Source: an uncultured Ardenticatenaceae bacterium (GTDB lineage: Bacteria > Chloroflexota > Anaerolineae > Promineifilales > Promineifilaceae). From it: a stretch of DNA of 27,878 nt. The position numbers and the translations under genes are program-made. This document shows positions 50 through 27,837 of this stretch, one piece after another (position 1 is the stretch's first letter; each line of letters opens with the position of its first letter). The stretch lies in the NCBI GenBank assembly GCA_964600035.1, contig CAZRIB010000005.1:1-27878 (forward strand), given 5' to 3'. Under the pieces are notes generated by a model. The model was not told the origin of the DNA. It saw only the letters and a list, made by a program, of their open reading frames with translations, and did not search any database.

Positions 50-1585
50 GTGGCTCAAATAAGTCGTCGAGAATTTCTAAAATTATTGCCAGCCGTTCCA
101 CTTTTCAAAGTGACATGGCCATACCTGGTTACAGAGGCAGCAAAATATCAGCAAGACCCTAACAGCCCCAACATTCTCTTCCTTATCTTCGACACATTTT
201 CCGCCAAACATATTTCCATGTACGGCTACCAAAGGGAGACCACACCCCACCTGGCTGCATTGGCAGAGCGGGCAACCATCTTCCACAGCCACAGGGCAGC
301 GGCAAACTTCACCTCACCGGGGACATCCTCCATTTTGACCGGAACATACCCCTGGACGCACCGTGCCTTTCATTTGCACGGCCTTGTTAATGAGGCATAT
401 GCTGACAAAAACATCTTTAGTCTGCTGCCAGACCATTACCATAAAGCCGCCTACACCCACAATTTGCTGGTTTTTTCCCTGCTGCACCAATTTCGCAGCC
501 ACGTAGATGATTTGCATAAAACCCGGGAACTGTGTTTGTCTGACACGCAGTTTGCCGACCGCCTTTTCTTTAATGATTACAGCCCGGCATTTTGGGGTGA
601 ATGGCTGGCCCTGCGCGGCGGCGCAACACCGCCATCTTCTTTGTTCCTGTCTATGGTAGATCGGGGACGGCGTTTTTTGAATAAACACCAGATTGAAGCG
701 GAATATGCGGCAGATTACCCGCGCGGTATTCCCAATTTGCACAGCCTGTATTTCCGGCTGGAAGATGCGATTGACTGGATTGGTGAGCAGGCGGCAGGCT
801 TGCCACGGCCGTATTTTGGATACTTCCATCTGCTGCCACCTCATGAACCTTACACCACCCACCGCGACTACATTGATGTATTTGCCGATGGCTGGCAGCC
901 CGTTGAAAAAGAAAAGGGTTTTGTTGGCGAAGGTATTCCACAGGCAAAGCTAAACAAAGAGCGGCGGGCTTATGATGAGTATATTGCTTTTGTGGATGCT
1001 GAAATCGGCCGTTTGTTCGCTAAAATGGAAGCGGATGGCGTGTTGGATAACACCTATGTGGTGTTGACATCCGATCATGGTGAACTGTTTGAGCGCGGCA
1101 TTCGCGGCCATGTGACGCGGGCATTGTATGACCCGCTTTTGCATGTGCCGTTGATGATTGTGAAACCCGGTCAGCAAAAACGGGAGGATGTATTTAGCCA
1201 TACCAGTGCGGTTGATTTGCTGCCTACCTTTTTGCATGTAACCGGCCAGCCCGTTCCAGAGTGGGCAGAAGGGCAGATTTTGCCCACATTTACAGATGCC
1301 GCACCAGACGGTCAACGGCCGACTTTTTCACTTGAGGCAAAAAGTAATGCCAAACAAGGCCCGTTAACCAAAGCGACAGCCACGATGGTAAAGGATGATT
1401 ACAAGCTGATTTACTATTTTGGGTATCGGCCAGGGGAAGAGTTGTATGAGTTGTTTGATTTGAAAAATGACCCTGAGGAGTTGACGAATTTGGTTGATGT
1501 GAAAACGGCCGTATTCGCCGACATGCAGACCGAACTAAAACGTAAAATCGAAAGCGTCAACGAACCATTTGCGCACAAATCCTGA
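50..1585 (+). CDS. Tat-exported sulfatase-like hydrolase/transferase (alkaline phosphatase superfamily)
   Basis: N-terminal SRREFLK twin-arginine motif. It has the PNILFLIFDT metal-binding start, TSPGTSSILTG in place of CxPxRxxxLTG, HLLPPHEPY, VVLTSDHGE and LHVPLMI. GTG start preceded by GGAGCA (39-44). Confidence 0.85.
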   Translation: MAQISRREFLKLLPAVPLFKVTWPYLVTEAAKYQQDPNSPNILFLIFDTFSAKHISMYGYQRETTPHLAALAERATIFHSHRAAANFTSPGTSSILTGTYPWTHRAFHLHGLVNEAYADKNIFSLLPDHYHKAAYTHNLLVFSLLHQFRSHVDDLHKTRELCLSDTQFADRLFFNDYSPAFWGEWLALRGGATPPSSLFLSMVDRGRRFLNKHQIEAEYAADYPRGIPNLHSLYFRLEDAIDWIGEQAAGLPRPYFGYFHLLPPHEPYTTHRDYIDVFADGWQPVEKEKGFVGEGIPQAKLNKERRAYDEYIAFVDAEIGRLFAKMEADGVLDNTYVVLTSDHGELFERGIRGHVTRALYDPLLHVPLMIVKPGQQKREDVFSHTSAVDLLPTFLHVTGQPVPEWAEGQILPTFTDAAPDGQRPTFSLEAKSNAKQGPLTKATATMVKDDYKLIYYFGYRPGEELYELFDLKNDPEELTNLVDVKTAVFADMQTELKRKIESVNEPFAHKS

Positions 1586-1630
1586 AACCAACCTGAGTCA
1601 CCTGACACTTTTTTAACAACAAGGAATGGG

Positions 1631-1737
1631 ACACAGATTGACACAGATAAACTCCGTAATCCGTAATTCGTAATTCGTGTGCTCTACCTCTGGTAACTTC
1701 GTCGGAAAACGGTATACGGACTTCGGGTTACGGGTGC
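1631..1737. repeat. Intergenic tandem repeats: ACACAGAT x2, (C/T)CGTAAT x3.5, TACGG-type inverse units
   Basis: ACACAGATTG ACACAGATAA (1631-1650), CCGTAAT CCGTAAT TCGTAAT TCGT (1654-1678) and TACGGACTTCGGGTTACGGG (1715-1734). The last matches the reverse complement of 23404-23421 at 16/18 nt. Confidence 0.8.
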
Positions 1738-1771
1738 TAGATACCAACAAAACAAGAGGAAATTCGGTAAT

Positions 1772-2554
1772 ATGGTAGCCAATTTAAGAAACCTGTATCA
1801 CTATCGAGAAATGCTCGGCATGTGGATCTTCCGTGAGATTCGCGTGCGTTACAAACAATCCTTTTTAGGCGCGGCCTGGGCTATTTTGCAGCCATTGGTA
1901 CTCATGCTCATGTTTACCCTGGTTTTTTCAGTCATGGCGCGCTTCCCCACAGATGGCATTCCATACCCCATCTTTTCCTACACCGCCCTGCTGCCCTGGA
2001 CACTGTTTGCCACATCCGTCAGTTTTGGTGTGTCATCGCTCATCAACAACATGACGCTGGTGACAAAAACGTACTTCCCCAGGGAAGTGCTGCCGATGGG
2101 TGTCATTGGTGCGGCGCTGTTTGATTACCTGATCGCGTCGTCCATTTTCATTGCCATGCTCATCTATTACCAAATTCCGCTGACAATTCACTTTTTGTGG
2201 ATTCCTGTCTTTTTGGTGGTTCAAATTTTCTTGATGATGGGCATTATTTTACTGGGATCGGCCGTAACGGTGTTTTACCGTGATGTGCGTTTTGTGGTGC
2301 CGCTGCTGGTGCAGTTGTGGCTCTATGCCACGCCTATCATTTACCCGGTAACGCTTGTTCCAGAGGCGTATCGCACGTTGTATATGCTTAACCCGATGGC
2401 GGGCATTGTGGAATCTTACCGGCAGGTAATCTTGCGTGGGCAGCCGCCGAATGCGCTGGATTTGGGTCTGGCTGCGGCCGTTTCCGTTAGCCTGTTTGTG
2501 GTGAGTTACATCATTTTTAAGAAACTGGAAGTACGCTTTAACGACATCATATAA
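1772..2554 (+). CDS. wzm: ABC-2 type polysaccharide export permease (Wzm)
   Basis: REIRVRYKQSFLGAAWAILQPL, YATPIIYP and LNPMAGIVESYR motifs; about six TM segments; adjacent to Wzt. Confidence 0.93.
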   Translation: MVANLRNLYHYREMLGMWIFREIRVRYKQSFLGAAWAILQPLVLMLMFTLVFSVMARFPTDGIPYPIFSYTALLPWTLFATSVSFGVSSLINNMTLVTKTYFPREVLPMGVIGAALFDYLIASSIFIAMLIYYQIPLTIHFLWIPVFLVVQIFLMMGIILLGSAVTVFYRDVRFVVPLLVQLWLYATPIIYPVTLVPEAYRTLYMLNPMAGIVESYRQVILRGQPPNALDLGLAAAVSVSLFVVSYIIFKKLEVRFNDII

Positions 2555-2561
2555 AATGTGA

Positions 2562-2623
2562 CAGGTGGCAGGTGGCAGGTGGCAGGTGGCAAGGAACATG
2601 ACCTGCCACCTGCCACTTGCCAC
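2562..2623. repeat. Heptamer (CAGGTGG)n tandem repeat in inverted arrangement forming a 23-bp hairpin
   Basis: CAGGTGG x4 (2562-2589) followed by ACCTGCC ACCTGCC ACTTGCC AC (2601-2623). 2566-2588 pairs with 2601-2623 with one G:T, leaving a 12-nt loop. Confidence 0.92.
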
Positions 2624-2675
2624 GTACTTTGCTTTAATCGTTAATCATCAATCTTTGTTTTTGAAGGAATTATCT

Positions 2676-3953
2676 ATGAAACCTGCGGTACGATTTGAAA
2701 ATGTATCGAAGAAGTATGTCTTGGGAACCGGGCATTCCAGCCTGGGCGCATTAATTAAAACGCCGGTCAAACGGCTGTTGGGACGTCCTGTGCCGGAACC
2801 CCAGGTGTTGTGGGCGTTGAAAGATGCTTCGTTCGATATTGAACCGGGTAAGGCTTTGGGTTTGATTGGGCCAAATGGCTCTGGCAAGACGACTTCGCTG
2901 AAGCTGCTCTCTAAAATTACGTTTCCGACGTCGGGGCGCATTTCGGTAAACGGCCGTATCTCCGCACTCATCGAACTAGGGGCAGGCTTCCATCCAGACC
3001 TCACCGGGCGCGAAAACGTCTACCTCAACGCCACCATATTAGGCATGAAACGCCACGAAATTGATGCCCGTTTTGACCGCATCGTAGAATTTTCCGGGCT
3101 GGAGCGATTCATCGACACACCCGTCAAACGGTACTCATCCGGCATGTACGTGCGGCTGGGCTTTTCCGTAGCCGCCCATGTGGAGCCAGACATCTTGCTG
3201 GTAGATGAAGTATTGGCAGTTGGCGACGCCCAATTCCGCCAAAAGTGTGCCCGCCGCATTGAAGAGCTGCAAAAAAAGGGCACAACCATCGTATTTGTTG
3301 CCCACAACCTTTACCTGGTAAAAAGCGTGTGTGATGAAGCCGTCTTTTTGCTAAACGGACAAATTCAGGACAAAGGGCCGGTAGATGACGTAATTGGCAG
3401 CTATGAAAAGTACCTGCATGAGCTGCAAGCCCGTTCATTGGAAGAAGAAAAAGTAGACCCCTTGCGCAGCGACAGACAGCGCGGCGTGACCACAAATTTG
3501 AAGATAACCGGCATTGATGTGTTAAATGAGCAGGGTAAAAAGCCGGAACAGTTCCACCACGATGAACCTGTGGAAATCCGCATTCATTACCAGGCAAAAA
3601 AGAAGCTGGAAAAGCCAAATGTCATTTTGCGCATTCGCCGGGCAGATGGCACAACAGCGGCCATGATTCGCACAGCTGATTATGGGATGGCACTGGATCC
3701 ATTGGAAGATAACGGCACGATTTCTTTGAAAATTGACCCCATTCAGTTGGCGGGCGGGGCTTATCTGATTTCTGCTTCATTGCAGGGGCCGGTGGATGGT
3801 GTTGGATTGGCCTGGGCAGATTCTCGCTGGTTCCAGGTGTCGGGTGTGAGTGTGAGCTTTGAAGAAAGCGGCGGCGTTTTTGTGCCGAATTTGGCGGCTG
3901 CCAAAGTGATCCCCGGGAATGTGAATCCGCGGGGTGAAAGTGTGCGGGTATAA
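2676..3953 (+). CDS. wzt: Polysaccharide export ABC ATPase (Wzt) with C-terminal Wzt_C carbohydrate-binding extension
   Basis: Walker A GPNGSGKTT, signature YSSGMYVRLGF, Walker B ILLVDEVLAVGD, and a ~170-aa C-terminal extension. Start moved to ATG 2676 (after AAGGA) because the ORF-track extension from 2565 only translates an intergenic repeat hairpin. Confidence 0.93.
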   Translation: MKPAVRFENVSKKYVLGTGHSSLGALIKTPVKRLLGRPVPEPQVLWALKDASFDIEPGKALGLIGPNGSGKTTSLKLLSKITFPTSGRISVNGRISALIELGAGFHPDLTGRENVYLNATILGMKRHEIDARFDRIVEFSGLERFIDTPVKRYSSGMYVRLGFSVAAHVEPDILLVDEVLAVGDAQFRQKCARRIEELQKKGTTIVFVAHNLYLVKSVCDEAVFLLNGQIQDKGPVDDVIGSYEKYLHELQARSLEEEKVDPLRSDRQRGVTTNLKITGIDVLNEQGKKPEQFHHDEPVEIRIHYQAKKKLEKPNVILRIRRADGTTAAMIRTADYGMALDPLEDNGTISLKIDPIQLAGGAYLISASLQGPVDGVGLAWADSRWFQVSGVSVSFEESGGVFVPNLAAAKVIPGNVNPRGESVRV

Positions 3954-3959
3954 GGAGCA
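3954..3959 (+). promoter_or_regulatory. Recurrent Shine-Dalgarno variant GGAGCA
   Basis: GGAGCA lies 3-5 nt before the starts at 50 (GTG), 3965 (TTG), 13562 (TTG), 22111 (ATG) and 27241 (ATG), at positions 39, 3954, 13552, 22101 and 27232. Confidence 0.65.
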
Positions 3960-3964
3960 GGCAT

Positions 3965-5659
3965 TTGGCTAACCGGAAAAAGACGTTGTTGGTTGGATTG
4001 GATGCGGCGTGCTGGTCTTTTGTACGGCCGTTACTGGACGCTGGCAAAATGCCCGCCCTTTCTCGTTTAATGGCTGGCGGCACAGCCGGAACGCTGGACT
4101 CTACCATGCCAGCCCTGACACCGGCGGCGTGGTCGTCCATTATTACCGGCAAAAATCCGGGGAAACACGCCATCTTTGACATGACGCGCCGCCGTCCGCA
4201 CAGCTATGAGAGTATGCCGGTAAACGGCCGTATGCGGTTAGGCACACCATTTTGGAAACGGCTCAATGAGGCAGGCCTTCGCGTGGGGCTGGTCAACATT
4301 CCCTTTACCTACCCGCCGGATGAGGTGGCAGGCTTTGTGGTTCCCGGCTTTGGCGCACCGGGGTCTGTGTCCAATTTGGTGTACCCGCGTGAAGCACTGG
4401 CCGATATTGAAGAAAAGTACGGCCGTTACGAACCTGTGGTGTCACCGGAGCTGTTAAGAAGCGGCCGTTACCAGGACATTTACGAAGCCGAAGCCCACCA
4501 TCAGGCCAACCAGGTTGCCATTGCCATTGACCTGGCCGCCAAATACGATGTGGACGTGCTGGCCATCAACCTGATGCTGCTGGACCACATGAACCACAAA
4601 ATGCCCGACATAGAGCGGGTAGAAGCGGCCATTTTGCAGTTGGACAAAGATTTGCAGGCTTTGCTGGATGGCTTTGTGCCGGATAACGTGATGGTCATTT
4701 CTGACCACGGCACGCGGCGGGTAAAAGGGGACTTTTTGCTGCACGTTTGGCTGCGGGACAATGGCTATTCTGTGCAAAAGAAACGCCTGCCGACGGAAAA
4801 AGCGGCCATTGTGAACTGGATTTTTGTGCAGTGGCTGCAGCGTCACCGGGGCTGGTCTGGTTTTGGTGAAAAGGCTGCCCGCTTTTTGCTGCGAAAAATG
4901 GTGGCGGCACTGCCTGCGGGCTGGCTGAAGGGATTTTGGGCGCGGGTAGAGCGGGATATTCCCGGCGCGCAGGTGTATGCCGAATTTAGTGAGGAACTGG
5001 ATTATGAAAAGACGCGGGTTTATCCCGGCGCATCATATTCCAGTGTGTTGTACTTTAATGTGAAAGGGCGCGAGCCGCAGGGTGTGGTTGATCCGGCAGA
5101 GGTGGCGGCGCTGGCGGCGGAGATTCGGCAGAAGTTGACGGCCGTTACCGACCCGGACAGCGGCGAACCCTTGTTTACGGCCGTATACACCGCCGACGAG
5201 CTTTACACAGGTGCGGCCAAAGTCATTGCGCCAGACATCATCATAGACAGCTACGCCGCAAAGTGGAACATTCTCTCCACTTTTCGGCGGGGGGCGCACG
5301 CCGAAGCGCTGCGAGACCGGTATTTTGCCAACAATTTCAAGGATTTTGGGCATCACAGCCGCGATGGCATTTTTGTGTTTGCCGGGGAAGCTTTTCGCAG
5401 TGACGGTTCTTTTGGCACGGCGGGGTCTGTGATGGATGTGCCGGCGACGCTGCTGCATTTGTGTGGTGTGCCTGTGCCGAATGATTGGGACGGCCGTTCC
5501 CTGACTGAGACGTTTAATCCGGCTTTTCTGGCTGCCCATCCTTTGACTTGCCAGCCCGGTGATGCGGAAACGGCCGTGACGTTTGATGATGGGCTGTACA
5601 GTGATGAGGAAAATGACGAGATTTTTAGCCACTTGCGGGCATTGGGTTACGTGGACTAG
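3965..5659 (+). CDS. Alkaline phosphatase family protein (type I phosphodiesterase/nucleotide pyrophosphatase-like)
   Basis: LLVGLDAA, STMPALTPAAWSSIITGKNPGKHAIFD, VMVISDHG, GHHSRDGIF and C-terminal LRALGYVD. TTG start after GGAGCA (3954-3959). Confidence 0.85.
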   Translation: MANRKKTLLVGLDAACWSFVRPLLDAGKMPALSRLMAGGTAGTLDSTMPALTPAAWSSIITGKNPGKHAIFDMTRRRPHSYESMPVNGRMRLGTPFWKRLNEAGLRVGLVNIPFTYPPDEVAGFVVPGFGAPGSVSNLVYPREALADIEEKYGRYEPVVSPELLRSGRYQDIYEAEAHHQANQVAIAIDLAAKYDVDVLAINLMLLDHMNHKMPDIERVEAAILQLDKDLQALLDGFVPDNVMVISDHGTRRVKGDFLLHVWLRDNGYSVQKKRLPTEKAAIVNWIFVQWLQRHRGWSGFGEKAARFLLRKMVAALPAGWLKGFWARVERDIPGAQVYAEFSEELDYEKTRVYPGASYSSVLYFNVKGREPQGVVDPAEVAALAAEIRQKLTAVTDPDSGEPLFTAVYTADELYTGAAKVIAPDIIIDSYAAKWNILSTFRRGAHAEALRDRYFANNFKDFGHHSRDGIFVFAGEAFRSDGSFGTAGSVMDVPATLLHLCGVPVPNDWDGRSLTETFNPAFLAAHPLTCQPGDAETAVTFDDGLYSDEENDEIFSHLRALGYVD

Positions 5660-5665
5660 AACAAA

Positions 5666-6964: not shown

Positions 6965-7090
6965 AGAGTGAGGATTGAAGATTAAAGATTGAGGATTAAA
7001 GATTAAAAGATTGGAGATTGGGGATTGGGGATGTCTTTAATCGTTAATCATCAATCATCATTCATTAATCATCATTCATTATTCATTATT
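6962..7090. repeat. Heptamer GATTRRR tandem array followed by a T(T/C)A(A/T)TC(A/G) array (STRR-like)
   Basis: GATTGAA GATTAAA GATTGAG GATTAAA GATTAAA..GATTGGA GATTGGG GATTGGG, then TTAATCG TTAATCA TCAATCA TCATTCA TTAATCA TCATTCA TTATTCA. Confidence 0.9.
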
Positions 7091-7107
7091 TACTGGAAAA
7101 GTGTGTC

Positions 7108-8457: not shown

Positions 8458-8575
8458 TTATTGAGTCTGCCGAAAAAACCGCAAAGAGCACAAAGAAACG
8501 CCAGAGAAAAAATTTGTGAAATTCGTGAAATTCGTGGCTTTTTTCGGGGCAGTCATATTTGCACTTTTTAGTTTT

Positions 8576-8656
8576 GGACGCAGATTTTCAGGATTAACGC
8601 AGATTATCTTGCAATTATGTTGACACAATCCTGAGAATCAGCGTTAATCTGCGTCC
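8576..8656. repeat. 81-bp element with 11-bp perfect terminal inverted repeats (GGACGCAGATT)
   Basis: GGACGCAGATT at 8576-8586 and AATCTGCGTCC at 8646-8656. Internal blocks TCAGGATT/AATCCTGA and AACGC(A/T)GATT are also complementary. Confidence 0.75.
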
Positions 8657-8701
8657 CTTTTGCGCTTTTCTGAAATATGTGAATGCTTACCCAGTAACAA
8701 T

Positions 8702-10183: not shown

Positions 10184-10188
10184 CAACT

Positions 10189-11253: not shown

Positions 11254-12504
11254 ATGCGGATTTTGGTTATAACCAATTATTACCCCCCTTTTGAACAGGG
11301 CGGGTGGGGACAATTAACTTACGATGTCGTACAGCAGTTAAAATCGCGAGGCCATGAGGTGTTGGTGTTAACCAGCCAGCACCGCCGCAGTGAGCTGCCT
11401 GCGCCGGAAGAGGGTGTGGAACGGACGCTTTTTTTGGAAAGCCCGGATCACATCCATTACAAAATGAAATATACATTGGCTTACCGTCGGGAGGAGGCTG
11501 CCAACAAGCGAATTGTGGCACATCACTGCCGCCAATTTGCCCCGGATGTGGTGTATGTAAATGGCATGTGGAATTTGCCGGTTTGTGTGGCGCAAACGGC
11601 CGAATCCTGTTTACCCGGTCGTGTGGCCTACTACATGGCCAGCTATTGGCCTGCCGAACAGGATGCCCACTCTGCTTTTTGGCAGGATATGCCGGATGGC
11701 TGGAAGCGGCTGCCCAAACAGTTGGTTGGACAGGCGTTGGTAAATTGGTGGCTTAAACCTGCTGCCCGCAACCGGCTGGATTTTCGGGTTGTGATGTGTG
11801 TGAGTGATTATTTGCGGCGGCGCATTGTGGCTGAAGCGGGTATTCCCGAAGAACGGACGCGGGTGGTGTATAACGGAATTGATTTGGCTGATTTTCCGTT
11901 ACGGCCGTTACCCGCACACACAAGCAGCACCCGCACCTTGAAACTGCTTTACGCCGGACGCTTTCATCCTGACAAAGGTGTCCATACCGTAATCGAAAGC
12001 CTGGGGCAGTTATGGCAAAAAACGCCATCCCTGCCGGTTTCTGTAACATTGGTAGGCAAGGGCGCACCGGCTTACGAAGAAGAACTGCATCATCTGGTAC
12101 AAAAACTGGGCATCGCAAACTGGATAACCTTCAAGCCATTTGTGGCTCGCGAAAAGATGCCCGCCATACTTAGAGAACACGACGCACTCATATTTCCATC
12201 GATTTGGCCGGAACCACTGGCCCGTATGGTACAAGAGGCAATGGCTTCTGGCTTGATTGTCATCGGTACAACCACTGGCGGTACACCGGAGATTTTGCAA
12301 GACGGCCGTAACGGCCTGACATTCCCGGCAGGGAATGCCGCCATGTTGGCAGAAAAAATCTTATGGCTGACCCAAAACCAAGATCAATGGCACAATCTGG
12401 CACAGGCTGCCCGAAAAACAGTGGAACAGCAATTTACACTCAACCGGATGGTGAACGAACTGGAAGCGCAGTTCGACCAACTCATTCAGACCAAGGCGAA
12501 GTGA
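11254..12504 (+). CDS. Glycosyltransferase family 4
   Basis: MRILVITNYYPP (start moved to ATG 11254), VVYNGID, LLYAGRFHPDKGV and PSIWPEPLARMVQEAMASG. Confidence 0.92.
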   Translation: MRILVITNYYPPFEQGGWGQLTYDVVQQLKSRGHEVLVLTSQHRRSELPAPEEGVERTLFLESPDHIHYKMKYTLAYRREEAANKRIVAHHCRQFAPDVVYVNGMWNLPVCVAQTAESCLPGRVAYYMASYWPAEQDAHSAFWQDMPDGWKRLPKQLVGQALVNWWLKPAARNRLDFRVVMCVSDYLRRRIVAEAGIPEERTRVVYNGIDLADFPLRPLPAHTSSTRTLKLLYAGRFHPDKGVHTVIESLGQLWQKTPSLPVSVTLVGKGAPAYEEELHHLVQKLGIANWITFKPFVAREKMPAILREHDALIFPSIWPEPLARMVQEAMASGLIVIGTTTGGTPEILQDGRNGLTFPAGNAAMLAEKILWLTQNQDQWHNLAQAARKTVEQQFTLNRMVNELEAQFDQLIQTKAK

Positions 12505-13561: not shown

Positions 13562-14926
13562 TTGACCAAACCAAACGTCGTCTTGCTAACAATTGACACA
13601 TTACGCCTGGATCGTCTGGGCTGTTTTGGCTGTAACAAACCGCTGACCCCCAATATTGACCGGCTGGCGGCTGAAGGTGTGCGTTTTTCGCAGGCCATTA
13701 CCGGTGGTTCATGGACGCAGGCTTCTTTCCCTGTCATCATGACATCGACTTATGCGTCGATGTATGGTGGCTGTTTGGGGAAATTGTCTGCGGAACGGCC
13801 GTCTCCCGCAGACGCACTGACCAAACACGGCTACCGCACAGCCGCCTTCTCCACCAGCCCCCTCCTTAGCCGCGCCTATGGCTACGACCGCGGCTTCCAG
13901 CACTTTGTAGACCTTATTCCCAACGAAAAAGACCCGGCCTTGCGAGAAATGAAAGGCGGCCAGCGCCTGCTGCGCAGTCCACTGACCCATAAAGTAAGCA
14001 AAGCCATTGGCAAGCAAACCCGGCCAGCCAAGGTCTATGTGGATGCGGGCGATTTAATTGATGCCGCCAGTCAGTGGATGGGAGAAGATGCGCATCCTTT
14101 CTTTGCCTGGGTGCATTTTATGGATGTGCACTGGCCTTACCACCGGGAAGACGCGCTTTCCAAGCCAGAGGAAATTGCACAAGCCTGGCGCGATTTGTCC
14201 CACCTGCATGAGGCGAACTGGAACGGCGCGCCCATCAGCCCGGAGCAGCGCGACCATTACATCCGTTTGTATGAGGACGCATTGGTGTATACCGACGCGC
14301 AAATTGGCCGTTTGTTAGACGATATGGCGGCCAGAGGTGTGTTGGATAATACGATTATTGTGTTGGTGTCTGATCACGGTGAGGAATTTTTGGAACACGG
14401 CCGTTGGGGACATTGGGAAGATAACCTGTATGATGAAATTTTGCGGGTTCCGCTTATTTTTCGTCTGCCAGGACTGGATGGCGCACGCAATATCTCGCGG
14501 CAGGTAAGCACCATCGACATTATGCCAACGATTCTGGATTTGTGTGGCTGCCCGCCGCCGACTGGCATGTTGGGGCATTCTCTTGTGCCGCTTTGGCAGG
14601 AGCCAGGTGCGGATTATCCAGTGGAAACGGCCGTTACCGAAATGTGGCGCGACCATTGGCACATCATTGCCGTGCGCACAGAGACCCATAAATATATCTG
14701 GGACAGCAAAAAGCCGGATGCATCTCGCCTGTATGATTTGCTCAACGACCCGGAAGAACGGGTAAACGTCGCTGACCGCCATCCCGACATTGTGCGAAAG
14801 TTGCATTCTGTTGTAGATGCCCGGCTGGCTGATATGGCGCTGACTGCCCCGGAAACGGCCGTTACCGAACCCACCCTCGACGACGATGTGCTGGCCCGTC
14901 TGCGTGGACTGGGTTACGTGGAATAA
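13562..14926 (+). CDS. Sulfatase-like hydrolase/transferase (alkaline phosphatase superfamily), no signal peptide
   Basis: PNVVLLTIDTLRLD, SWTQASFPVIMTS, WVHFMDVHWPY, VLVSDHGEEF, LRVPLIF and C-terminal LRGLGYVE. TTG start after GGAGCA (13552-13557). Confidence 0.87.
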   Translation: MTKPNVVLLTIDTLRLDRLGCFGCNKPLTPNIDRLAAEGVRFSQAITGGSWTQASFPVIMTSTYASMYGGCLGKLSAERPSPADALTKHGYRTAAFSTSPLLSRAYGYDRGFQHFVDLIPNEKDPALREMKGGQRLLRSPLTHKVSKAIGKQTRPAKVYVDAGDLIDAASQWMGEDAHPFFAWVHFMDVHWPYHREDALSKPEEIAQAWRDLSHLHEANWNGAPISPEQRDHYIRLYEDALVYTDAQIGRLLDDMAARGVLDNTIIVLVSDHGEEFLEHGRWGHWEDNLYDEILRVPLIFRLPGLDGARNISRQVSTIDIMPTILDLCGCPPPTGMLGHSLVPLWQEPGADYPVETAVTEMWRDHWHIIAVRTETHKYIWDSKKPDASRLYDLLNDPEERVNVADRHPDIVRKLHSVVDARLADMALTAPETAVTEPTLDDDVLARLRGLGYVE

Positions 14927-14931
14927 CGACC

Positions 14932-17396: not shown

Positions 17397-18808
17397 CTTC
17401 TTTGAGACGTTTGACCCACAATGAAGCATTGCAGCGCAAGGTGATTAAAGCCCTCATAATTATTGGGGTGCCTGTGTTGGGCTTTGCCCTGGTGCAGTAC
17501 CGGTCAGATACGATGATGCTGGCGGCGCTGCTGGCTGTGCCGCTGGGGCTGCTGGCTGTTACGCTGCTGCTGCGCTGGCCGCCGTTGGGGTTGCTGGCTG
17601 TGGTGGCTGTGGCGTTGATTGTGCCGTTTGATATTCCGCGTGTGGGTACGGTGGCGATTATGTTGGCCGGGTTAACGGCCGTTTGGCTGGGTGATATGTT
17701 CATGCGGCAGAGGCGGCTGGTTTTTGTGGTGTCTCCTACCATTCCGCCGCTGATCATGTTTACGGCCGTTGTCATCCTCTCCTTCATCATCGGCCAACTG
17801 CCCTGGTTTTACGTCTCCCAGGTTCCCATCGACCGGCAAATCGGCGGTGCAGCCATCTTCATTCTCTCCTTCGCCGCCTTCTTCATGGCCGCCCACCAAA
17901 TCCGCGACATCAAATGGCTAAAATACATGGTATTCGGTTTTATCGTACTGGCCATTCCATCCATCATATTTGGCCTGCGCATTTTACCCGCCCAAACATC
18001 CTTCCGGCTAAACCGCATGATTTACAGCACAAAAATCACCGGCGGCAGTCTGTATTGGTTGTGGCTTGCCGCATTCATTTTTAGCCAAATTTTAATCAAC
18101 AAAAAATTAGACAACCGTCTGCGAATCATTATGGCGTTTTTGTTAGTCGGGCAGTTCTATCTGGCAATGGGACGCAAGCGTGCCTGGACATCAGGTTGGT
18201 TTCCGGCACTCGTTTCATTGGCAATCATCCTGGTGGCATACCGGCCTAAGCTGGCTTTGCCGTTAACCTTAGGGGCGCTGTTGGTTGGGGCACTGGGTTC
18301 TCAGCAAATATATGATGCCGTATTTATTGGTGACAATGAATACAGCGCCATCACCCGCCTGGAAGCCTGGACAATCGTCACGGAAATCGCCAAAAAGAAC
18401 CCTATTCTGGGGCTTGGGCCAGGAAATTATTACAACTACACCACACTTTACTCCATTCGCGGCTGGTACGTGCAGTTTAATTCGCATAACAATTATGTGG
18501 ACATTCTCGCGCAAACCGGCATTTTGGGCATTATTTGTTTTTTGTGGTTTGCGGTGGTGGCTGGACGGCTGGCATGGCGGCTGCGTACTTTAGTGCCCAA
18601 AGGCGGTTTTACAGAAGCGTACGTATTTGGGGCGCTGGGTGGGCTGGTAGGCAGTATGGCCGCTGCCATGTTAGGTGATTGGGTGCTGCCCTTTGTGTTC
18701 AACATCGGCATTTTTGGCCTGCGTGCCAGCATCATTTTCTGGTTGGTAATGGGGGGGCTGGTTGCCATTGACCAGATGCTGATTAAAAAAATTCCAATTG
18801 ATGATTGA
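17393..18808 (+). CDS. O-antigen ligase / Wzy_C family membrane protein (possible O-oligosaccharyltransferase)
   Basis: About 12 TM segments. The late loop contains TRLEAW, PILGLGPGNY and HNNYVDILAQTGILG, the conserved His region of Wzy_C/WaaL. Confidence 0.85.
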   Translation: MTSLRRLTHNEALQRKVIKALIIIGVPVLGFALVQYRSDTMMLAALLAVPLGLLAVTLLLRWPPLGLLAVVAVALIVPFDIPRVGTVAIMLAGLTAVWLGDMFMRQRRLVFVVSPTIPPLIMFTAVVILSFIIGQLPWFYVSQVPIDRQIGGAAIFILSFAAFFMAAHQIRDIKWLKYMVFGFIVLAIPSIIFGLRILPAQTSFRLNRMIYSTKITGGSLYWLWLAAFIFSQILINKKLDNRLRIIMAFLLVGQFYLAMGRKRAWTSGWFPALVSLAIILVAYRPKLALPLTLGALLVGALGSQQIYDAVFIGDNEYSAITRLEAWTIVTEIAKKNPILGLGPGNYYNYTTLYSIRGWYVQFNSHNNYVDILAQTGILGIICFLWFAVVAGRLAWRLRTLVPKGGFTEAYVFGALGGLVGSMAAAMLGDWVLPFVFNIGIFGLRASIIFWLVMGGLVAIDQMLIKKIPIDD

Positions 18809-18921
18809 TTTCTGTAACGGGTATGTAAGCGGCAAGCAGTATGACTTGCAGCCTGCAAACCTGTAACGTGTCGTTGCTTTCATCCATTAACCATCAATCA
18901 TGACTTCACCAAAAAAGAAAT

Positions 18922-18993
18922 TGCGGAGGCGCAAAGGACGCGGAGAATTTGAAGTTATCAGAGAAAAATCTTTGTGTTCTCTGCGCCTCTGCG
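18922..18993. repeat. 9-mer-based imperfect inverted repeat (23-bp stem)
   Basis: TGCGGAGGCGCAAAGGACGCGGA (18922-18944) pairs with TTTGTGTTCTCTGCGCCTCTGCG (18971-18993); most deviations are G:U-compatible. Confidence 0.8.
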
Positions 18994-19049
18994 GTGAATT
19001 TAACCTTTTTTCAATGAACTCAATCTTTATTTTCAAAGGTGACTGACCT

Positions 19050-19874
19050 ATGTTTTCACAAATCGTATCCATAGCAGGGGAAGAACTCCGCTACCAATAC
19101 GTGCAAATTCGTCAAAAATTGACCCAAAACCACCACATACCAGCTAAAGTGCTGGTCAATGGCAGCCCCAAATCGGGCACAACCTGGATGGTGAAATTGA
19201 TTTCGTCTCTACCCGGCTACCGGGAAGTAGGCAATTATCAGGGGGATTTTCAAAAGTATTATCAGAGCGAATCGGGGGATGTCATTCATGGGCATGATCC
19301 GTTTTCTTTGGAATTAAAGCAGATTTTGGCTGAAGCAGGAATCAAGGTTGTGTTGATGGTGCGAGATCCACGTGATCAGTTGGTCTCGCGGATGTTCCAC
19401 ATAAAGCGCAGCCCCAAGCATGTCTGGCATGATCGCATGCAGGATATTGGCGTTGATGAAGCGTTGATGATGTGTATTGAAGGGCGTGAAAATTTACCGG
19501 CTACCAGTCAGGTAATTGCGCTTGCCCAGACGTGGATGGTTCCTGAAGCGGAGATGTTGTGTGTGCGTTATGAAGATATGCTGGCTGATCCGGTGACGCA
19601 TTTTTCCAAGGTGATGCAGTATATTGGCATGGAAGCGGATCATTTGCTGGCGCGGGTGGTGGTGGAGCGTAATCGCTTTGAGCGCCTGTCTGTGGGGAAG
19701 CGTATCTGGCAGCAGCAGCGGCGGCCTGGCCAGGAAGATGCCAACTCTCATTTTCGCAAGGGGATTGCGGGTGACTGGCGTAATTATTTGAAGCCGGAGC
19801 ATATTGCCCGTTTTAAGGAGTTGGCTGGCCGCCAGTTGATTGAGTTGGGCTATGAACAGGATATGGATTGGTAG
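19050..19874 (+). CDS. Sulfotransferase (Sulfotransfer_1-like)
   Basis: 5'-PSB GSPKSGTTW, 3'-PB MVRDPRDQLVS, and C-terminal RKGIAGDWRNY matching the RKGxxGDWKNxF motif. Confidence 0.9.
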   Translation: MFSQIVSIAGEELRYQYVQIRQKLTQNHHIPAKVLVNGSPKSGTTWMVKLISSLPGYREVGNYQGDFQKYYQSESGDVIHGHDPFSLELKQILAEAGIKVVLMVRDPRDQLVSRMFHIKRSPKHVWHDRMQDIGVDEALMMCIEGRENLPATSQVIALAQTWMVPEAEMLCVRYEDMLADPVTHFSKVMQYIGMEADHLLARVVVERNRFERLSVGKRIWQQQRRPGQEDANSHFRKGIAGDWRNYLKPEHIARFKELAGRQLIELGYEQDMDW

Positions 19875-19880
19875 CCTGTG

Positions 19881-20798
19881 ATGGTGAAGCTTTCTGTTGT
19901 GATTGTTAGCTGGAATACGGCCGATTTGCTGCGGGCATGCTTGCGCTCTGTTTATGAGCATCCGCCAACGGTGACGTTTGAGGTTTGGGTGGTGGATAAT
20001 GCGTCGCATGATGGTAGTGCGGAGATGGTGCGGCGTGAGTTTCCGCAGGTGAAACTGGTGGCGAAGGATGTGAATGGGGGGTTTGCGGCAGGAAATAATG
20101 AGGCGCTGCCGCTGTGTGCCGGGGAGTATGTGCTGTTGTTGAATCCTGATACGGTGGTGAAGCCGAATGCGCTGCAAGCGTTGGTGGATTTTTTGGATGA
20201 AACGCCGGATGCAGGCGCGGCGGGGTCGATGCTGTTGAACCCGGATGGTTCTTTGCAGCCGTCGGCTTTTCCGGCGCCGACGCTGCGGCGGGAGTTGTGG
20301 CGGTTGTTTCATTTGGACAGGATACGGCCGTATGGCATTTACCACATGCAGCAGTGGGACACGGCCGTTCCCCGTGAAGTAGACGTACTGCAAGGGGCAT
20401 CCTTGCTCATTCGCCGCGACATTTTGAACCAGATTGGCTTGTTCGACACAACCTACTTTATGTACTCCGAAGAAGTCGATTTATGCCGTCGGCTGCAGTT
20501 GGCTGGCTGGCGGTTGTATTGGGTTCCTGCTTCTCGCGTGGTGCATTATGGCGGGCAAAGCACCCGGCAAATTGCAGAGCAGATGTTTATTCAGCTTTAC
20601 CGGGGCAAGCTGCTTTATTTTCGCAAGCATTACGGCCGTTTTCATGCGTGGGCATACAAAGCAGTTTTGGCACTGGCTTCCGTGGCGCGGCTGGCACTCA
20701 CCCCGCTGGTCGTGGTGCAGTCCGCCGAAAAACGGCAGCAAAGCCTGACATTGGCGCGGTATTATGCCCATCTTGTCAAAGCCATTCCCTCCTTTTAA
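19881..20798 (+). CDS. Glycosyltransferase family 2 (WbbL-like)
   Basis: LSVVIVSWN, VVDNASHDGS, GFAAGNN, LLLNPD and YFMYSEEVDLCRR. ATG 19881 or GTG 19878. Confidence 0.92.
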   Translation: MVKLSVVIVSWNTADLLRACLRSVYEHPPTVTFEVWVVDNASHDGSAEMVRREFPQVKLVAKDVNGGFAAGNNEALPLCAGEYVLLLNPDTVVKPNALQALVDFLDETPDAGAAGSMLLNPDGSLQPSAFPAPTLRRELWRLFHLDRIRPYGIYHMQQWDTAVPREVDVLQGASLLIRRDILNQIGLFDTTYFMYSEEVDLCRRLQLAGWRLYWVPASRVVHYGGQSTRQIAEQMFIQLYRGKLLYFRKHYGRFHAWAYKAVLALASVARLALTPLVVVQSAEKRQQSLTLARYYAHLVKAIPSF

Positions 20799-22066: not shown

Positions 22067-22110
22067 TCTTTCATCCATCAATCATCAACCTTTATTCACA
22101 GGAGCAACAG

Positions 22111-23403: not shown

Positions 23404-23468
23404 CGTAATCCGAAGCCCGTACACCCGTGATTGGGATGCAGATAACGGGTTACGGGCAACGGATTACG
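23404..23468. terminator. Long imperfect hairpin between convergent genes; candidate bidirectional terminator built from CCGTAAT/TTACGG heptamers
   Basis: CGTAATCCGAAGCCCGTACACCCGTGAT (23404-23431) pairs with ATAACGGGTTACGGGCAACGGATTACG (23442-23468). It starts immediately after the + strand stop (23403) and ends 8 nt before the - strand stop (23477). There is no clear U-tract. Confidence 0.55.
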
Positions 23469-23476
23469 GATACCGT

Positions 23477-24589
23477 CTACATACCAAAACAGTAATTTGT
23501 AAAGAAGCAGATGCGCCAGCTTATCCAGCCGATTTGTGAGAACAGGTACCACAGGTATGCGCCAATGAGCAGCACTCCGGCGTAACGGCCGATTGCCCAG
23601 CGCCGTACGATTAACAAAAACAACAGCGCTATCACCGTTGCAAACAAGAGAATAACAGAAGATTCCAGGTTTTCTGTAACAACCTGCATATTTTCACCGC
23701 GCCACAAAATGATGAACACCCAGGGCAGGCCCAGCCCAATGGCAATATCGAAGATGTTGGAGCCGACAGCATTGGCAATGGCCATGTCGCCTTGTCCTTT
23801 TCTGGCAACGACAATGGAACTCATCAGGTCGGGAATGCTGGTTCCGGCGGCCAGAATGGTGAGAGCGATGATGACTTCTGGTACACCGATGGCGTGGGCA
23901 ATTTGTACGGCCGATTCCACCATGAGGTGTGAAAGCAAGGCCAGAAAAATGATGGAGACGGCAAAGTTGAAGATGAGGAGATGCGGCCGTTTCCGCAAAT
24001 CGGCAAAAAAGAGCGACAACGTTTTGTCCAGCACATTGCGCCATGTCCACCCGCTGGCACGCAGGGCTTGTTGGGGACTTTCCTCCTCCTCCTCATTTTG
24101 CGCATTATCCGCCTCAATTTCATAAGGCAGCCACTTCTTCCACAGGCCAAACGAGAACAAGTAAACGACATACAAGCTCACATACATGAGCGCGTCAACC
24201 AGAGTGATGGTGCCATCTCGAAACGTAAACAGCAGCAGCAAGATGCAGACAATGTAAAAAATCAGGTCACGGATGACAGGCTGCCATGTCAGCACAGCCC
24301 GTTTAACCAATGCCGAAGCCCCAATAATGACCAAAATGTTAAAAATGGCTGACCCCACAATTGTGCCAGCACCCATTGCCTGCTGTTCCTGCACCCGAAA
24401 CAGCGCCAAAATGGAAACAAACAACTCCGGTGCAGATGAGCCGACTGCCATGAACGTAGCCCCGGCAATATCGGAGGAAAGTTTCAGCCGGTCAGAGATA
24501 ATTTCCAGCGTTTCAACAAAATAGACTTCTACAACCTGGGCGAGCAGGTAAAAAGCCAGTAACAGTTCCAAAATCCACAGGATGATCAT
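23477..24589 (-). CDS. Calcium/sodium antiporter (CaCA family, NCKX-like)
   Basis: Alpha-1 repeat GATFMAVGSSAPELF...GTIVGSAIFNIL and alpha-2 repeat ILAAGTSIPDL...GDMAIANAVGSNIFDI. Two 5-TM halves joined by an acidic loop (NEEEEES). Confidence 0.9.
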   Translation of the reverse strand: MIILWILELLLAFYLLAQVVEVYFVETLEIISDRLKLSSDIAGATFMAVGSSAPELFVSILALFRVQEQQAMGAGTIVGSAIFNILVIIGASALVKRAVLTWQPVIRDLIFYIVCILLLLFTFRDGTITLVDALMYVSLYVVYLFSFGLWKKWLPYEIEADNAQNEEEEESPQQALRASGWTWRNVLDKTLSLFFADLRKRPHLLIFNFAVSIIFLALLSHLMVESAVQIAHAIGVPEVIIALTILAAGTSIPDLMSSIVVARKGQGDMAIANAVGSNIFDIAIGLGLPWVFIILWRGENMQVVTENLESSVILLFATVIALLFLLIVRRWAIGRYAGVLLIGAYLWYLFSQIGWISWRICFFTNYCFGM

Positions 24590-24955
24590 GATTACTTTTT
24601 TGCTTCCTTGTTTGTTGGTGTGTGCCTGTTTTGTACGGCGAGATTTTTACAGGGTCAGAAGGATACACGCAAATTGAAAAACACAAAAACTGAAGGCGGG
24701 TTGGTGTAAGCCGGTTGGTAAGAAAGGATCGTTACTATTCCACTGTAAAAGCCAACAATGATAAATAGCTTGGTTACATGTTGAACTTTTTTCTGAAATG
24801 GGGGAGCCATCGTGAACGGCTGGGCAAACCACAAAAGGTGTTTGAGTGTGAGAACATCTTTTTCCTTGTGGGCTGCTTGTGTAATTGGCAAAAAATCCCG
24901 GGTGTTTTTGTGCTAATTGCATCACACATTGTTGGCGCCATGAATTTATCTGCTT

Positions 24956-26182
24956 ATGGATGTACTCTTTATTGTTCCCTATGTGCCCAATTTGGTGAGG
25001 ACACGCCCCTATAACTTTATTCGAGCATTGAGTGAGCGCGGTAACCGGGTGACGGTGTTGACTGTGCGCGCCAGTGAAGCGGATGAGGCGGATTTGGCTG
25101 CGCTGCGAAAGATGGTGTATGCGGTGGAGGCGGTGTCTTTGCCTGTTTGGCGTTCCCTGCTGAATTGTTTGCCGGCTTTGTTGTCGGGTGTGCCTTTGCA
25201 AACACGCTTTTCGTGGGATGCGGGTCTGTTTTCGCGGTTAAACGGCCGTTTCCCCTTTGACGTGGTTCATGTCGAACACCTTCGTGGCGTGCGCTATGCC
25301 CTGCATCTCAAAAAACACACCCAACTACCCGTTGTATGGGACAGCGTAGACTGCATTACCCATTTGTTTAAGCAGGCCGCTGCACAAAGCAAAAACAATA
25401 TGCTTCGCTGGCGCAGCCGCTTTGAATTGGGGCGCACAGAGCGGTATGAGCGGTGGCTTTTGGACAAATTTGACCAAATTTTGGTGACGTCGCATCTGGA
25501 TAGGGAAGCGATGCAGTCGCTGAACCCCCAACAGCCAGCACCCATTACGGTGGTTCCCAATGGGGTGGATTTGAACTATTTTCGGCCAGACACGGCCGTT
25601 ACCCGGCAAGAAAAATCACTCGTTGTCAGCGGCAAGATGAGCTACCACGCCAATATCAGCATGGTGCTGCATCTTGTGGAAAAAATTATGCCGCATGTGT
25701 GGCAAGAACAGCCAGACGTGACCCTCACCATTGTGGGCAAAGACCCGACCAAAGAGGTGGTGGCATTGGCTGAACATCCAAACATTACAGTAACGGGGAC
25801 GGTGCCGGAGATACGGCCGTATCTCCAACAAGCCGCCATCGCCCTCACCCCACTCACTTACGGCGCAGGTGTCCAAAACAAAGTACTGGAAGCAATGGCC
25901 TGCGGCACACCCGTTGTCAGCACAACACGCGCCATCAAACCGCTGGGTGTCCAGCCGGGGCGCGCTCTCCTGGCTGCCGATGACCCGGCCCAATTTGCCC
26001 GGCACGTCCTGGAACTGCTGGCAAACCCGGCACAACGCGCCCAAATCGGCCGTGCCGCCAGAGCATACGTAGAACAGAACCACAACTGGCACACACTGGC
26101 TGGAGACCTGGAGCAAATTTACCAACAAGCAAAACATCAACACAACCCGGTATTCAAACAAGCCGCCACAGCCGCAAAATAG
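24956..26182 (+). CDS. Glycosyltransferase family 4
   Basis: VVPNGVDLNYF, VSGKMSYHANI and GAGVQNKVLEAMACGTPVV. Confidence 0.92.
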   Translation: MDVLFIVPYVPNLVRTRPYNFIRALSERGNRVTVLTVRASEADEADLAALRKMVYAVEAVSLPVWRSLLNCLPALLSGVPLQTRFSWDAGLFSRLNGRFPFDVVHVEHLRGVRYALHLKKHTQLPVVWDSVDCITHLFKQAAAQSKNNMLRWRSRFELGRTERYERWLLDKFDQILVTSHLDREAMQSLNPQQPAPITVVPNGVDLNYFRPDTAVTRQEKSLVVSGKMSYHANISMVLHLVEKIMPHVWQEQPDVTLTIVGKDPTKEVVALAEHPNITVTGTVPEIRPYLQQAAIALTPLTYGAGVQNKVLEAMACGTPVVSTTRAIKPLGVQPGRALLAADDPAQFARHVLELLANPAQRAQIGRAARAYVEQNHNWHTLAGDLEQIYQQAKHQHNPVFKQAATAAK

Positions 26183-26253
26183 GTCATTTTCAACGAATTA
26201 GAATCGTTGCAATTAGTTTGTGTAATGGAACAATAGCAAAGGTGTAGCAGTCC

Positions 26254-27231
26254 ATGATCATTGTGCAATCCCCATTAAGAGTTAGTTTGTTCGGCGGCGG
26301 AACCGATTTCGCCGACTTTTACAAGGAACATGGCGGGTGTGTCCTGTCCTCCGCCATCGACAAATTCATCTTCGTCACCATAAAACAGCGTTTTGATGAC
26401 AAAATTCGCGTTGGCTACACACGAACAGAAATGGTAGACAGCATCGATGAAATTCAACACGAATTGATTCGAGAAGCACTCCGGGTTACGGGCATCCAAA
26501 AAGGGGTGGAAATTACCACAATGGGCGACATCCCCTCCGAAGGTTCGGGGCTGGGTTCTTCCAGCACAGTTACCGTAGGGGCTTTGCATGCCATGTATGC
26601 CTACCAAAAGGAATTGGTGCTGTCGGAGCGGTTGGCGCGGGAAGCCTGCTACATTGAAATTGAAAAATTAGGAAAGCCCATTGGTATCCAAGACCAATAC
26701 ATTGCGGCTTATGGTGGTTTGCGTTTTATGGAATTTATGCCGGATGGGCGGGTAGTTGCTAATCGTGCTGTCTTTGATGACCATACGCTGCGCCGTTTGA
26801 ATGAAAACCTGCTTTTGTTCTTTACAGGTGTTACGCGCAAAGCCGATAACATTCTTTCAGAACAAAAAAGCAACATTCAGGATAAAACATCAATTTTGTG
26901 CCAGATGAAATCCATTGCTTACACAGCGTTTCAGGAACTGCAAAAAGGGCATTTTCGGGCGATTGGTGAGCTTTTGGATGAGAGCTGGCAGTTGAAGAAG
27001 CGGCTGGCCAGCCAAATTAGCAACGGTGTGCTGGATGAGATGTATGAAACGGCAAAGGCGGCCGGGGCAATTGGCGGCAAAATTTCAGGCGCGGGCGGCG
27101 GCGGTTTTTTGTTGGTTTATGTGCCTAAAACACATCATGAGGATGTGCGGCAGGCGTTGAGTCATTTGCAAGAATTACCGTTTCGATTGGGGCAGGATGG
27201 CAGTAAGGTCATTTTTGATTATCAACGATGA
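26254..27231 (+). CDS. hddA: D-glycero-alpha-D-manno-heptose-7-phosphate kinase (GHMP kinase)
   Basis: [31 protein letters not shown] and [12 protein letters not shown]; adjacent to gmhA. Confidence 0.85.
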
Positions 27232-27240
27232 GGAGCAGCG

Positions 27241-27837
27241 ATGAATCACGTAAGACATTATTTTTCGGAAATAACAGAGACTTTGACGCGCATTGATGAA
27301 GGCCCGATTAATCAGGTGATTGGTTTGCTGCATGAGGCACGGGTAAACGGCCGTCAAGTGTTCATCATGGGCAACGGCGGCAGTGCATCCACCGCATCCC
27401 ATTTTGTATGCGACCTGGCCAAAAACACCCGCCAGCCAGATTGGCCGCATTACCGCGTTATCGGCCTTACAGACAATATGGCTATCTTTTCTGCCTATGC
27501 CAACGATGAAGGGTATGAAAACGTCTTTGCCATGCAGCTCGCCAATCTGGTACAGCCGGGAGATGTCGTTATCGGCATTTCAACCAGCGGCAACTCGCAG
27601 AATGTATTGCGTGGCATTGCCCTGGCCAATGAAAAAGGGGCTACAACAGTCGGTTTTACCGGTTTCGATGGCGGTAAATTGGCAGGAATGGTTGATATTC
27701 ATTCCCACACACCCAGTTATTGCATTGAACACGTCGAAGATATTCACTTGATGCTGGAGCATTTAATTACCAAAGTGCTGCGGGAGATGACAGAAACCGT
27801 TGCTGTTGAGCAATGTCTTGGCACATCTGTGTCATAA
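27241..27837 (+). CDS. gmhA: Phosphoheptose (sedoheptulose-7-phosphate) isomerase, SIS domain
   Basis: [44 protein letters not shown] and EDIHLMLEH. Confidence 0.88.

Follow-up and report, generated by a model that had tools for sequence, protein, structure and literature searches.

Why should the base composition of a bacterial DNA strand reverse, again and again along one contig, at the same short palindrome? The question is raised by the window studied here, a stretch of 27,878 nucleotides (contig CAZRIB010000005.1, positions 1 to 27,878) from the genome of an uncultured Ardenticatenaceae bacterium of the phylum Chloroflexota (assembly GCA_964600035.1). The palindrome is the 8-mer ACGGCCGT, and a first-pass annotation had described G/T-rich DNA on its 5′ side and C/A-rich DNA on its 3′ side. 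Analysis of the window, of the whole assembly and of related genomes showed that the flip is synonymous, independent of gene orientation, mirror-symmetric and pinned to the palindrome. The element is a highly iterated palindrome (HIP) of the HIP1 kind, in another phylum, and the sawtooth of skew between its copies is the imprint of a DNA process that starts or ends at the sites and is accounted for by no described system.

The window contains 53 exact copies of ACGGCCGT compared with 0.46 expected from shuffles, an enrichment of more than 100-fold. Across the source genome (label G000; 4.35 Mb in 706 contigs, 52% G+C, 97% complete) the word occurs 8329 times, once per 522 bp, and is the top-ranking octamer; octamers sharing its composition have a mean of 71 copies in the same genome. 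Genes were called with a purpose-built caller, which is imperfect (3413 genes), and positions were then split by codon position. Reading frames of the sites within genes were divided approximately 55/32/14%, and 902 sites fell outside called genes. The palindrome is surrounded by a loose halo, GGAAACGGCCGTTTCC, and its outer-base variants outnumber its inner-base variants, as with HIP1. It also resembles HIP1-type words in being a perfect 8-bp palindrome within their range of genome-wide excess (15- to 300-fold), in occurring in genes in all frames and in spacers, and in being lineage-wide with alternate words in some members. For the genes of the window, the nearest named relative is an uncultured Anaerolineae metagenome-assembled genome.

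Individual sites and site-free intervals of the window illustrate the pattern. Hand counts in the first-pass annotation, covering sites 2950, 13795 and 25813, the 17675/17762 pair, and the G:C counts at 13795 and 11901, were reproduced to within ±1. The features are listed below; none is assigned to a strand, and the values for intervals are third-position keto (G/T) excess by successive fifths.

805 to 27354: 53 exact ACGGCCGT sites with a sawtooth of third-position skew between them; keto excess is greater upstream than downstream at 44 of 51 scorable sites
2950 to 2957: site in the conserved Wzt ATPase core; 16/20 third positions G/T before, 17/20 C/A after
2958 to 4023: site-free interval of 1.07 kb with a full ramp; −0.48, −0.25, −0.09, +0.28, +0.38
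11901 to 11908: site with a sharp raw flip; G:C 18:10 over the preceding 60 nt, 10:24 over the following 60 nt
13795 to 13802: site with the strongest raw flip among those first described; G:C 19:10, then 10:31 (60 nt); third positions 15/20 G/T, then 18/20 C/A
17675 to 17769: pair of sites (17675 and 17762), 87 nt apart, forming a joint single boundary; 18/20 G/T ahead of 17675, 14/20 C/A beyond 17762
17770 to 20323: the window's longest stretch without a site (2.55 kb), ramped from end to end; −0.31, +0.18, +0.08, +0.56, +0.80
23983 to 23990: GCGGCCGT, an outer-base one-mismatch variant in the sole minus-strand gene; G:C 23:5 before, 12:17 after
25813 to 25820: site ahead of a 1.5-kb site-free ramp (25821 to 27346); 13/20 G/T, then 17/20 C/A; gap fifths −0.41, −0.40, +0.07, +0.29, +0.32

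Keto excess rose through all three site-free gaps of the window, from about −0.3/−0.5 to +0.3/+0.8, and the positive offset of the 17770 to 20323 ramp is consistent with the replication-arm and coding bias of the window. The Wzt-core site has an identical 14-nt context in a relative (L001:10305-10312), in proteins that are just 66% identical.

Site-centred plots over the whole genome gave an all-position G−C skew of +0.18 over the 50 nt leading up to the site and −0.17 over the 50 nt beyond it, and the T−A skew flipped with the same sign. GC skew at third codon positions (GC3) passed from +0.342 to −0.327 across sites in plus-strand genes and, in plus-strand reading, from +0.353 to −0.335 in minus-strand genes. 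The polarity is therefore the same whatever the gene strand, as first claimed, and transcription or gene orientation is ruled out as the cause. Codon positions 1 and 2 shifted only slightly, confirming that the effect is synonymous, and it was strongest at the least constrained positions. Between one palindrome and the next, four-fold degenerate sites changed from 0.50 to 0.19 in C and from 0.18 to 0.46 in G, and spacers underwent a pure keto/amino change, with G+T rising from 0.43 to 0.58 and purines steady at 0.50. Among isolated sites taken individually (n = 3072), 91% had a higher keto excess upstream than downstream.

The flip requires the full 8-mer. Isolated full sites produced a GC3 step of +0.585, compared with −0.03 to −0.15 for the controls, which comprised 15 unrelated palindromes, GGCC, CGGCCG with other outer bases, and inner one-mismatch variants. 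These flat or reversed control values reflect the reverse background slope of the sawtooth itself. Half-variants such as ACGGCCGV retained about one third of the full step and core-only CGGCCG sites retained none. The bare CGGCCG core had been thought active from an example at 23984; this example is in fact the GCGGCCGT variant listed above.

Several other sources of skew were considered. Four-fold skew at the level of contigs was bimodal at about ±0.15, the usual replication-arm skew. Peak-to-peak size of the sawtooth was equal in both arm classes, with the arm adding an offset of only ±0.14. Okazaki priming or a replication-arm cause would have the wrong sign and is rejected by the full two-sided sawtooth in both classes. 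An extended hairpin or cruciform was rejected because the flanks of the sites are mutually complementary no more than composition predicts. A hidden polar oligomer fared no better, as orientation biases of 3- to 6-mers follow the single-base skew (r 0.93 to 0.84, slope approximately 1).

The shape of the sawtooth is set by the nearest sites. The first-pass annotation had supposed a decay over a few hundred bp, and this was not borne out: GC3 followed a near-linear ramp in every class of interval (200–400, 400–700, 700–1100, 1100–1800 and 1800–4000 nt), from −0.34 to −0.50 right after a site, through zero at the midpoint, to +0.35 to +0.51 right before the next, so that recovery lengthens as the next site lies farther away. 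When skew was tabulated against dL and dR, the distances to the nearest palindromes on the left and on the right, it was approximately zero wherever dL = dR, at all scales from 25 to 1600 nt, and each doubling of dL/dR shifted it by about 0.12, with extremes of −0.67 and +0.69. Regression with separate kernels gave a nearest-site kernel falling from 0.90 at 7–15 nt to 0.18 at 2–3 kb, roughly linear in log distance. Sites beyond the nearest contributed about one tenth as much at equal distance, i.e. they were some 90% shadowed. A nearest-only model explained more variance than an additive one (R2 0.0710 vs 0.0638), and fixed exponential decay with additive sites fitted more poorly than the nearest-site models. 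Since the nearest sites carry the effect and farther ones are shadowed, every site is both source and boundary, and each interval is one unit.

The skew is also zero-sum. Four-fold G+C was 0.672 beside sites and 0.642 at mid-interval, and spacer G+C was flat at 0.448–0.455. A four-state equilibrium model with extra C>T on one strand matched the spacer skew only if G+C fell from 0.455 to about 0.38. A zero-sum model based on strand of origin, with keto-producing transitions at 1.5–2 times their complements, gave a GC skew of 0.19, a TA skew of 0.16, flat G+C and purines at 0.50, and fitted the spacer values better. A force toward G/C-ending codons would explain, qualitatively, why the G−C skew is larger, and purines shift, at four-fold positions.

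To compare orthologous genes, 269 proteins of the source genome (mean identity 62%) were aligned to 600 kb from G008 and G010, two relatives sharing its iterated word. Approximately 35% of source sites were matched by a site at the orthologous place. Where both genomes had the site, the relative's own GC3 step was +0.34. Where only the source genome had it, the step of the relative at that place was −0.06, and where only the relative had it, the source genome's step was −0.15. The flip thus tracks the site and not the locus. The silent-site location of the effect and its loss at orthologous places lacking the site rule out an amino-acid or gene-position cause. The step was larger at sites conserved between genera (0.68) than at the remaining sites (0.58). 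Retention of about 35% of sites stands beside a protein identity of about 62%, at which, in our judgement, silent sites would be expected to be saturated.

In about 15 of the family's 24 genomes ACGGCCGT reaches thousands of copies, and the remaining families of the order show background numbers. Samples from relatives covered 44–420 kb, and those of the exceptions revealed alternate 8-mers: TCGGCCGA in G012, GCGGCCGC in G021, and TGCCGGCA in G015 and G019 (loci L178-L181, L188-L190 and L029-L049). Of these, GCGGCCGC is the NotI site. G005/G054 and G009 had only an approximately five-fold excess of a 6-mer (CGGCCG), as did G017 (GCCGGC), and the sample of G014 had no enriched word. Between sister genera the outer base pair of the word varies and the core is mostly retained. 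The polarity of the sawtooth was the same at every 8-mer word of the family. Its amplitude, expressed as GC3 range between the first and last sixth of the inter-site interval, was as follows.

G000 (source genome): 0.74
G021: 0.56
G008: 0.50
G012: 0.42
G010: 0.41
G015: 0.37
G006: 0.17
Genomes with a 6-mer only: 0.0

Cyanobacterial HIP1 (GCGATCGC) displayed the same polarity. Over about 100 pooled 8-kb loci GC3 moved from −0.10 to +0.05, and in three single cyanobacterial genomes the ranges were 0.38, 0.27 and 0.31, with non-HIP GATC sites flat in those genomes. GATC in Escherichia coli K-12 was likewise flat (range −0.02 ± 0.01 over all positions, −0.03 for GC3; 889 sites, 200 kb). Fifteen viral contig stretches (L253-L267), phage-like and without assigned host or life style, carried ACGGCCGT once per 394 bp, more densely than the hosts, yet had no sawtooth (range 0.03 ± 0.015 over all positions, 0.07 at third positions). 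Because these contigs are site-rich but flat, enrichment of the palindrome and skew are separable.

Together the observations call for a process that reads the full 8-mer, treats the two strands as mirror images, stops at the nearest sites, divides a fixed total, acts on the chromosome so frequently that it outweighs replication skew threefold, and spares phage DNA. Candidate drivers were sought in the source genome with protein family models. The methyl-directed drivers named in the first-pass annotation were not supported: no match was obtained there for C5-methyltransferase (PF00145), for MutH (PF02976, with a positive E. coli control, in a genome that is 97% complete), for Vsr (PF03852) or for NucS (EndoMS; PF01939). 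A NotI-family protein was not matched either, a weak negative as the model matched no control genome. Four N4/N6-type methyltransferases (PF01555) were found, on contigs C295, C92, C402 and C183. None of the first three co-distributes with the word among relatives, two being sporadic and one class-wide. The fourth was rejected as a member of a BanI-type restriction-modification pair, in which a BanI-type restriction gene lies beside an N4/N6 methyltransferase with a homing-endonuclease-associated repeat (L170:20-2568); the pair is an ordinary type II system, unrelated to the palindrome.

Phosphorothioation, another driver suggested at first, was examined through dndC, which is present outside the window (C630:1120-2076; 368 bits against a curated cut-off of 290). 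The gene occurs in only 5 of 25 family genomes (G000, G002, G010, G018 and G023, all rich in ACGGCCGT; relatives' loci L199-L202). The sawtooth is present without it in G008, G012, G015 and G021, with ranges in G008 and G021 above that of dndC-bearing G010. Phosphorothioation is therefore rejected as the driver, the distribution of dndC not matching that of the sawtooth. In the source genome dndC resembles a mobile defence island, and the contig breaks off with the rest of the dnd cluster not seen.

MutS, MutS2 and an endonuclease-type MutL (with DQHAxxE and CPHGRP motifs) are encoded. So is a 617-residue MutS_V-only paralogue (C116:4325-6175; L177:193-2043), with the MutS ATPase domain at residues 437-610 and no assigned domain in the N-terminal 430. 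This paralogue occurs in 21 of 24 genomes within the family and 0 of 16 outside. As a driver it was set aside as a weak lead: two relatives that lack an 8-mer encode it as well, and it has neither conserved neighbours nor a cyanobacterial orthologue. The nuclease adjoining it is an ExeM/NucH-type extracellular enzyme that is not syntenic elsewhere, and was rejected too.

We tentatively propose that the sawtooth arises from removal of errors that enters at the full ACGGCCGT site and runs 5′ to 3′, so that position decides which strand's errors survive. The proposal starts from what is observed, namely the need for the full 8-mer, mirror symmetry, nearest-site control, independence of gene strand and arm, flat G+C and a flip that follows the site. 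What we infer is the nature of the process (error correction), its 5′-to-3′ direction and the enzyme responsible. The full site would act as entry point and boundary for strand-specific correction, proceeding 5′ to 3′ along one strand away from the site, whether as excision resembling mismatch repair or as renewed synthesis of the new strand. Plus-strand errors would be handled from the nearest site to their left and minus-strand errors from the nearest site to their right, with efficiency dropping with distance from the entry site. Changes surviving just 5′ of a site would then come mainly from the strand running toward it, and those just 3′ mainly from the other strand. If errors convert amino to keto bases on their strand of origin (C>T and A>G, through G·T mispairs or deamination), each strand would become G/T-rich on approaching a site and C/A-rich on leaving it. 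G+C would be unchanged because the split between strands is zero-sum. The observed polarity argues for a 5′-to-3′ process, as a 3′-to-5′ one would give the opposite sign. Mirror symmetry, with a polarity that agrees with a process running 5′ to 3′ from the site on each strand, had been recognized at the outset. The interpretation offered then thus survives as regards a synonymous, orientation-independent, mirror-symmetric effect of 5′-to-3′ polarity, and not as regards the decay length, deamination, the named drivers or an active bare core. The presence of MutS and endonuclease-type MutL in the genome is counted as support for a repair-like process.

A number of results weigh against this proposal. 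The searches revealed neither a site-specific nickase nor a cognate methyltransferase nor any other driver. With the RecJ equivalog model (TIGR00644) no match was obtained in this 97%-complete genome, with 13 of 14 control genomes positive, in a search that did not extend to other 5′-to-3′ exonucleases; site-entered correction is thereby left without a named exonuclease candidate. The fitted distance exponent was about 0.5, compared with 1 for a simple first-passage search. The flatness of the phage-like contigs is tolerated but not predicted. Protein identity near sites was no higher than elsewhere and nearly flat beyond 30 nt, giving no sign that mutation is locally slower. Genome-wide, identity to relatives in the 30 nt nearest to sites was 3–7 points below the mean of the same gene; either the sites lie in less constrained segments, or site and halo force amino-acid changes. 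A close strain for polarising substitutions was not available, with no identical protein on record and no metagenome relative.

Other mechanisms were weighed against the same data. Nicking or cutting of the site, followed by 5′-to-3′ resection, would leave the site-ward strand single-stranded, where faster C>T deamination would build the skew. This agrees with the polarity and the mirror symmetry, a double-strand-break version would give equal polarity, and the shadowing by the next site would follow if all sites of a strand were nicked together. Mammalian meiotic break hotspots, at whose centre skew flips, provide an analogy. We nevertheless consider it unlikely. The required fall in spacer G+C to 0.38 is not seen, with no drop beside sites at four-fold or spacer positions, and deamination of an exposed strand, the cause first suggested, is weakened on this count. 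Tract lengths would need a log-uniform spread from 10 nt to more than 3 kb, exposure would be needed at nearly every site in nearly every generation to outweigh other mutation, and no cognate modification enzyme or nuclease was found. The palindromes might instead be entry sites for uptake or recombination, at which single strands end with fixed polarity and either donor damage or biased heteroduplex repair builds the skew. HIP1 has been argued to be a DNA uptake sequence in a 2026 paper that cites methylation-dependent gains in transformation (PMC13756078). Fragments bounded by sites would account for nearest-site control, and conservation of about 35% of sites between genera is as for selected or driven motifs. 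Recombination would, however, have to dominate change at every silent site, and T/G-specific heteroduplex repair would predict the wrong sign of T−A skew. A version resembling Chi and RecBCD-AddAB would lead one to expect a larger step where a long interval lies beyond the site, but the step was +0.41 with a neighbouring interval of 8–100 nt and +0.26 with one of more than 1 kb; Chi is moreover asymmetric, and these sites are palindromic. Overall, entry of recombining or incoming strands seems improbable.

Two further explanations appear very improbable. Selection could maintain the skew as a polar signal guiding a translocase to the sites, as the FtsK orienting polar sequences (KOPS) steer FtsK toward dif, and the G-rich strand does point to the site from both sides, formally as around dif. 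A discrete polar word is lacking, though, since the 3- to 6-mer biases are explained by single-base skew; the effect is strongest where constraint is least, and phage genomes retain sites without skew. Causality could also run in reverse, with some other process making G-rich to C-rich switches at which the palindrome preferentially originates or persists. The word ACGG|CCGT does run from G-rich to C-rich, and the orthologue test gives co-variation, not direction. Such an origin is hardly credible when TGCCGGCA, which is C-rich and then G-rich, has the same polarity in G015, when four different words mark flips in four lineages, and when composition alone cannot yield an enrichment above 100-fold. 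Conserved, older sites have larger steps, and genomes without an 8-mer show no switches at related 6-mers. The probability that remains beyond site-entered error removal and these rivals belongs to a mechanism not yet conceived.

Comparison with known systems places the element closest to HIP1. HIP1 and alternate highly iterated palindromes are known from cyanobacteria (Elhai 2015, PMC4390886; Xu et al. 2018, PMC5861425), where a cognate orphan methyltransferase accompanies the HIP word (Elhai 2015, PMC4390886). The two have in common an 8-bp palindrome in approximately 100-fold excess, placement in genes in all frames and in spacers, lineage-wide occurrence with replacement in some members, and a sawtooth of the same polarity. 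They differ in word and phylum, in the amplitude of the sawtooth, which is about twice as large at ACGGCCGT, and in the lack of a C5-methyltransferase, or of any methyltransferase tracking ACGGCCGT, in the Chloroflexota genome. Skew is not mentioned in either of the HIP1 analyses cited, and no published description of a palindrome-anchored skew sawtooth was found in the open-access literature.

Resemblances to other systems are partial. Replication skew, which forms N-shaped domains between fixed origins in human DNA, likewise consists of a keto excess on one strand with a sharp sign change at fixed points, is linear between them and zero-sum, and leaves G+C unchanged; the sawtooth units here are about 0.5 kb and not megabases, a jump of terminus sign occurs at every site, and arm skew (±0.15) is separate and additive. 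MutH repair at GATC in E. coli is like the proposed site-entered correction in using a short palindrome as entry for strand excision, with efficiency falling with distance, but no MutH or Dam-type partner is present here, E. coli excises in both directions, and its GATC sites are flat. Dnd phosphorothioation acts at GGCC-core motifs in Streptomyces, and ACGGCCGT contains GGCC in a genome with dndC above the curated cut-off; the sawtooth is equally strong without dndC. Mammalian meiotic hotspots, too, show strand asymmetry mirrored about the place where a DNA transaction starts, but are eukaryotic, protein-defined and kilobases wide, with a weak effect.

Strand skews are usually attributed to replication or transcription acting on a scale of kilobases to megabases. 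The skew described here is three times the replication skew, is reset about every 500 bp by an 8-bp word, has its limits at the nearest neighbouring words and sums to zero over the two strands; the sequence itself thus gives direct evidence of a DNA transaction that is frequent, enters at sites and depends on direction. New elements of the analysis are nearest-site control with a scale-free shape, the zero-sum argument, the orthologue test, alternate words of identical polarity, the HIP1 sawtooth in single genomes, and the flat controls (phage contigs, 6-mer-only genomes and E. coli GATC). Models of codon usage and substitution in these genomes are affected, as the silent codon chosen varies strongly with how far away the next palindrome lies.

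The imprint is shared by four unrelated words of a single Chloroflexota family and is weaker at HIP1, which provides a first mechanistic handle on highly iterated palindromes. It is possible, if doubtful, that HIPs in general (the four Chloroflexota words and HIP1) are strand-entry sites of one-directional, 5′-to-3′, post-replicative error correction, in which the flanking site engaged sets the strand that is rewritten. Were this so, DNA beside sites would be the best corrected and site-poor DNA the fastest to mutate, and the words would protect themselves and pile up to one per 300–600 bp. It would supply both a function and a mechanism for the 30-year-old HIP puzzle. The question is accessible in tractable cyanobacteria. 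The clearest HIP1 sawtooth was displayed by a cyanobacterial metagenome-assembled genome of 62% G+C (G057, L268-L271), which carries HIP1 once per 265–274 bp (14949 copies in 4.1 Mb), to our knowledge among the highest densities of this palindrome.

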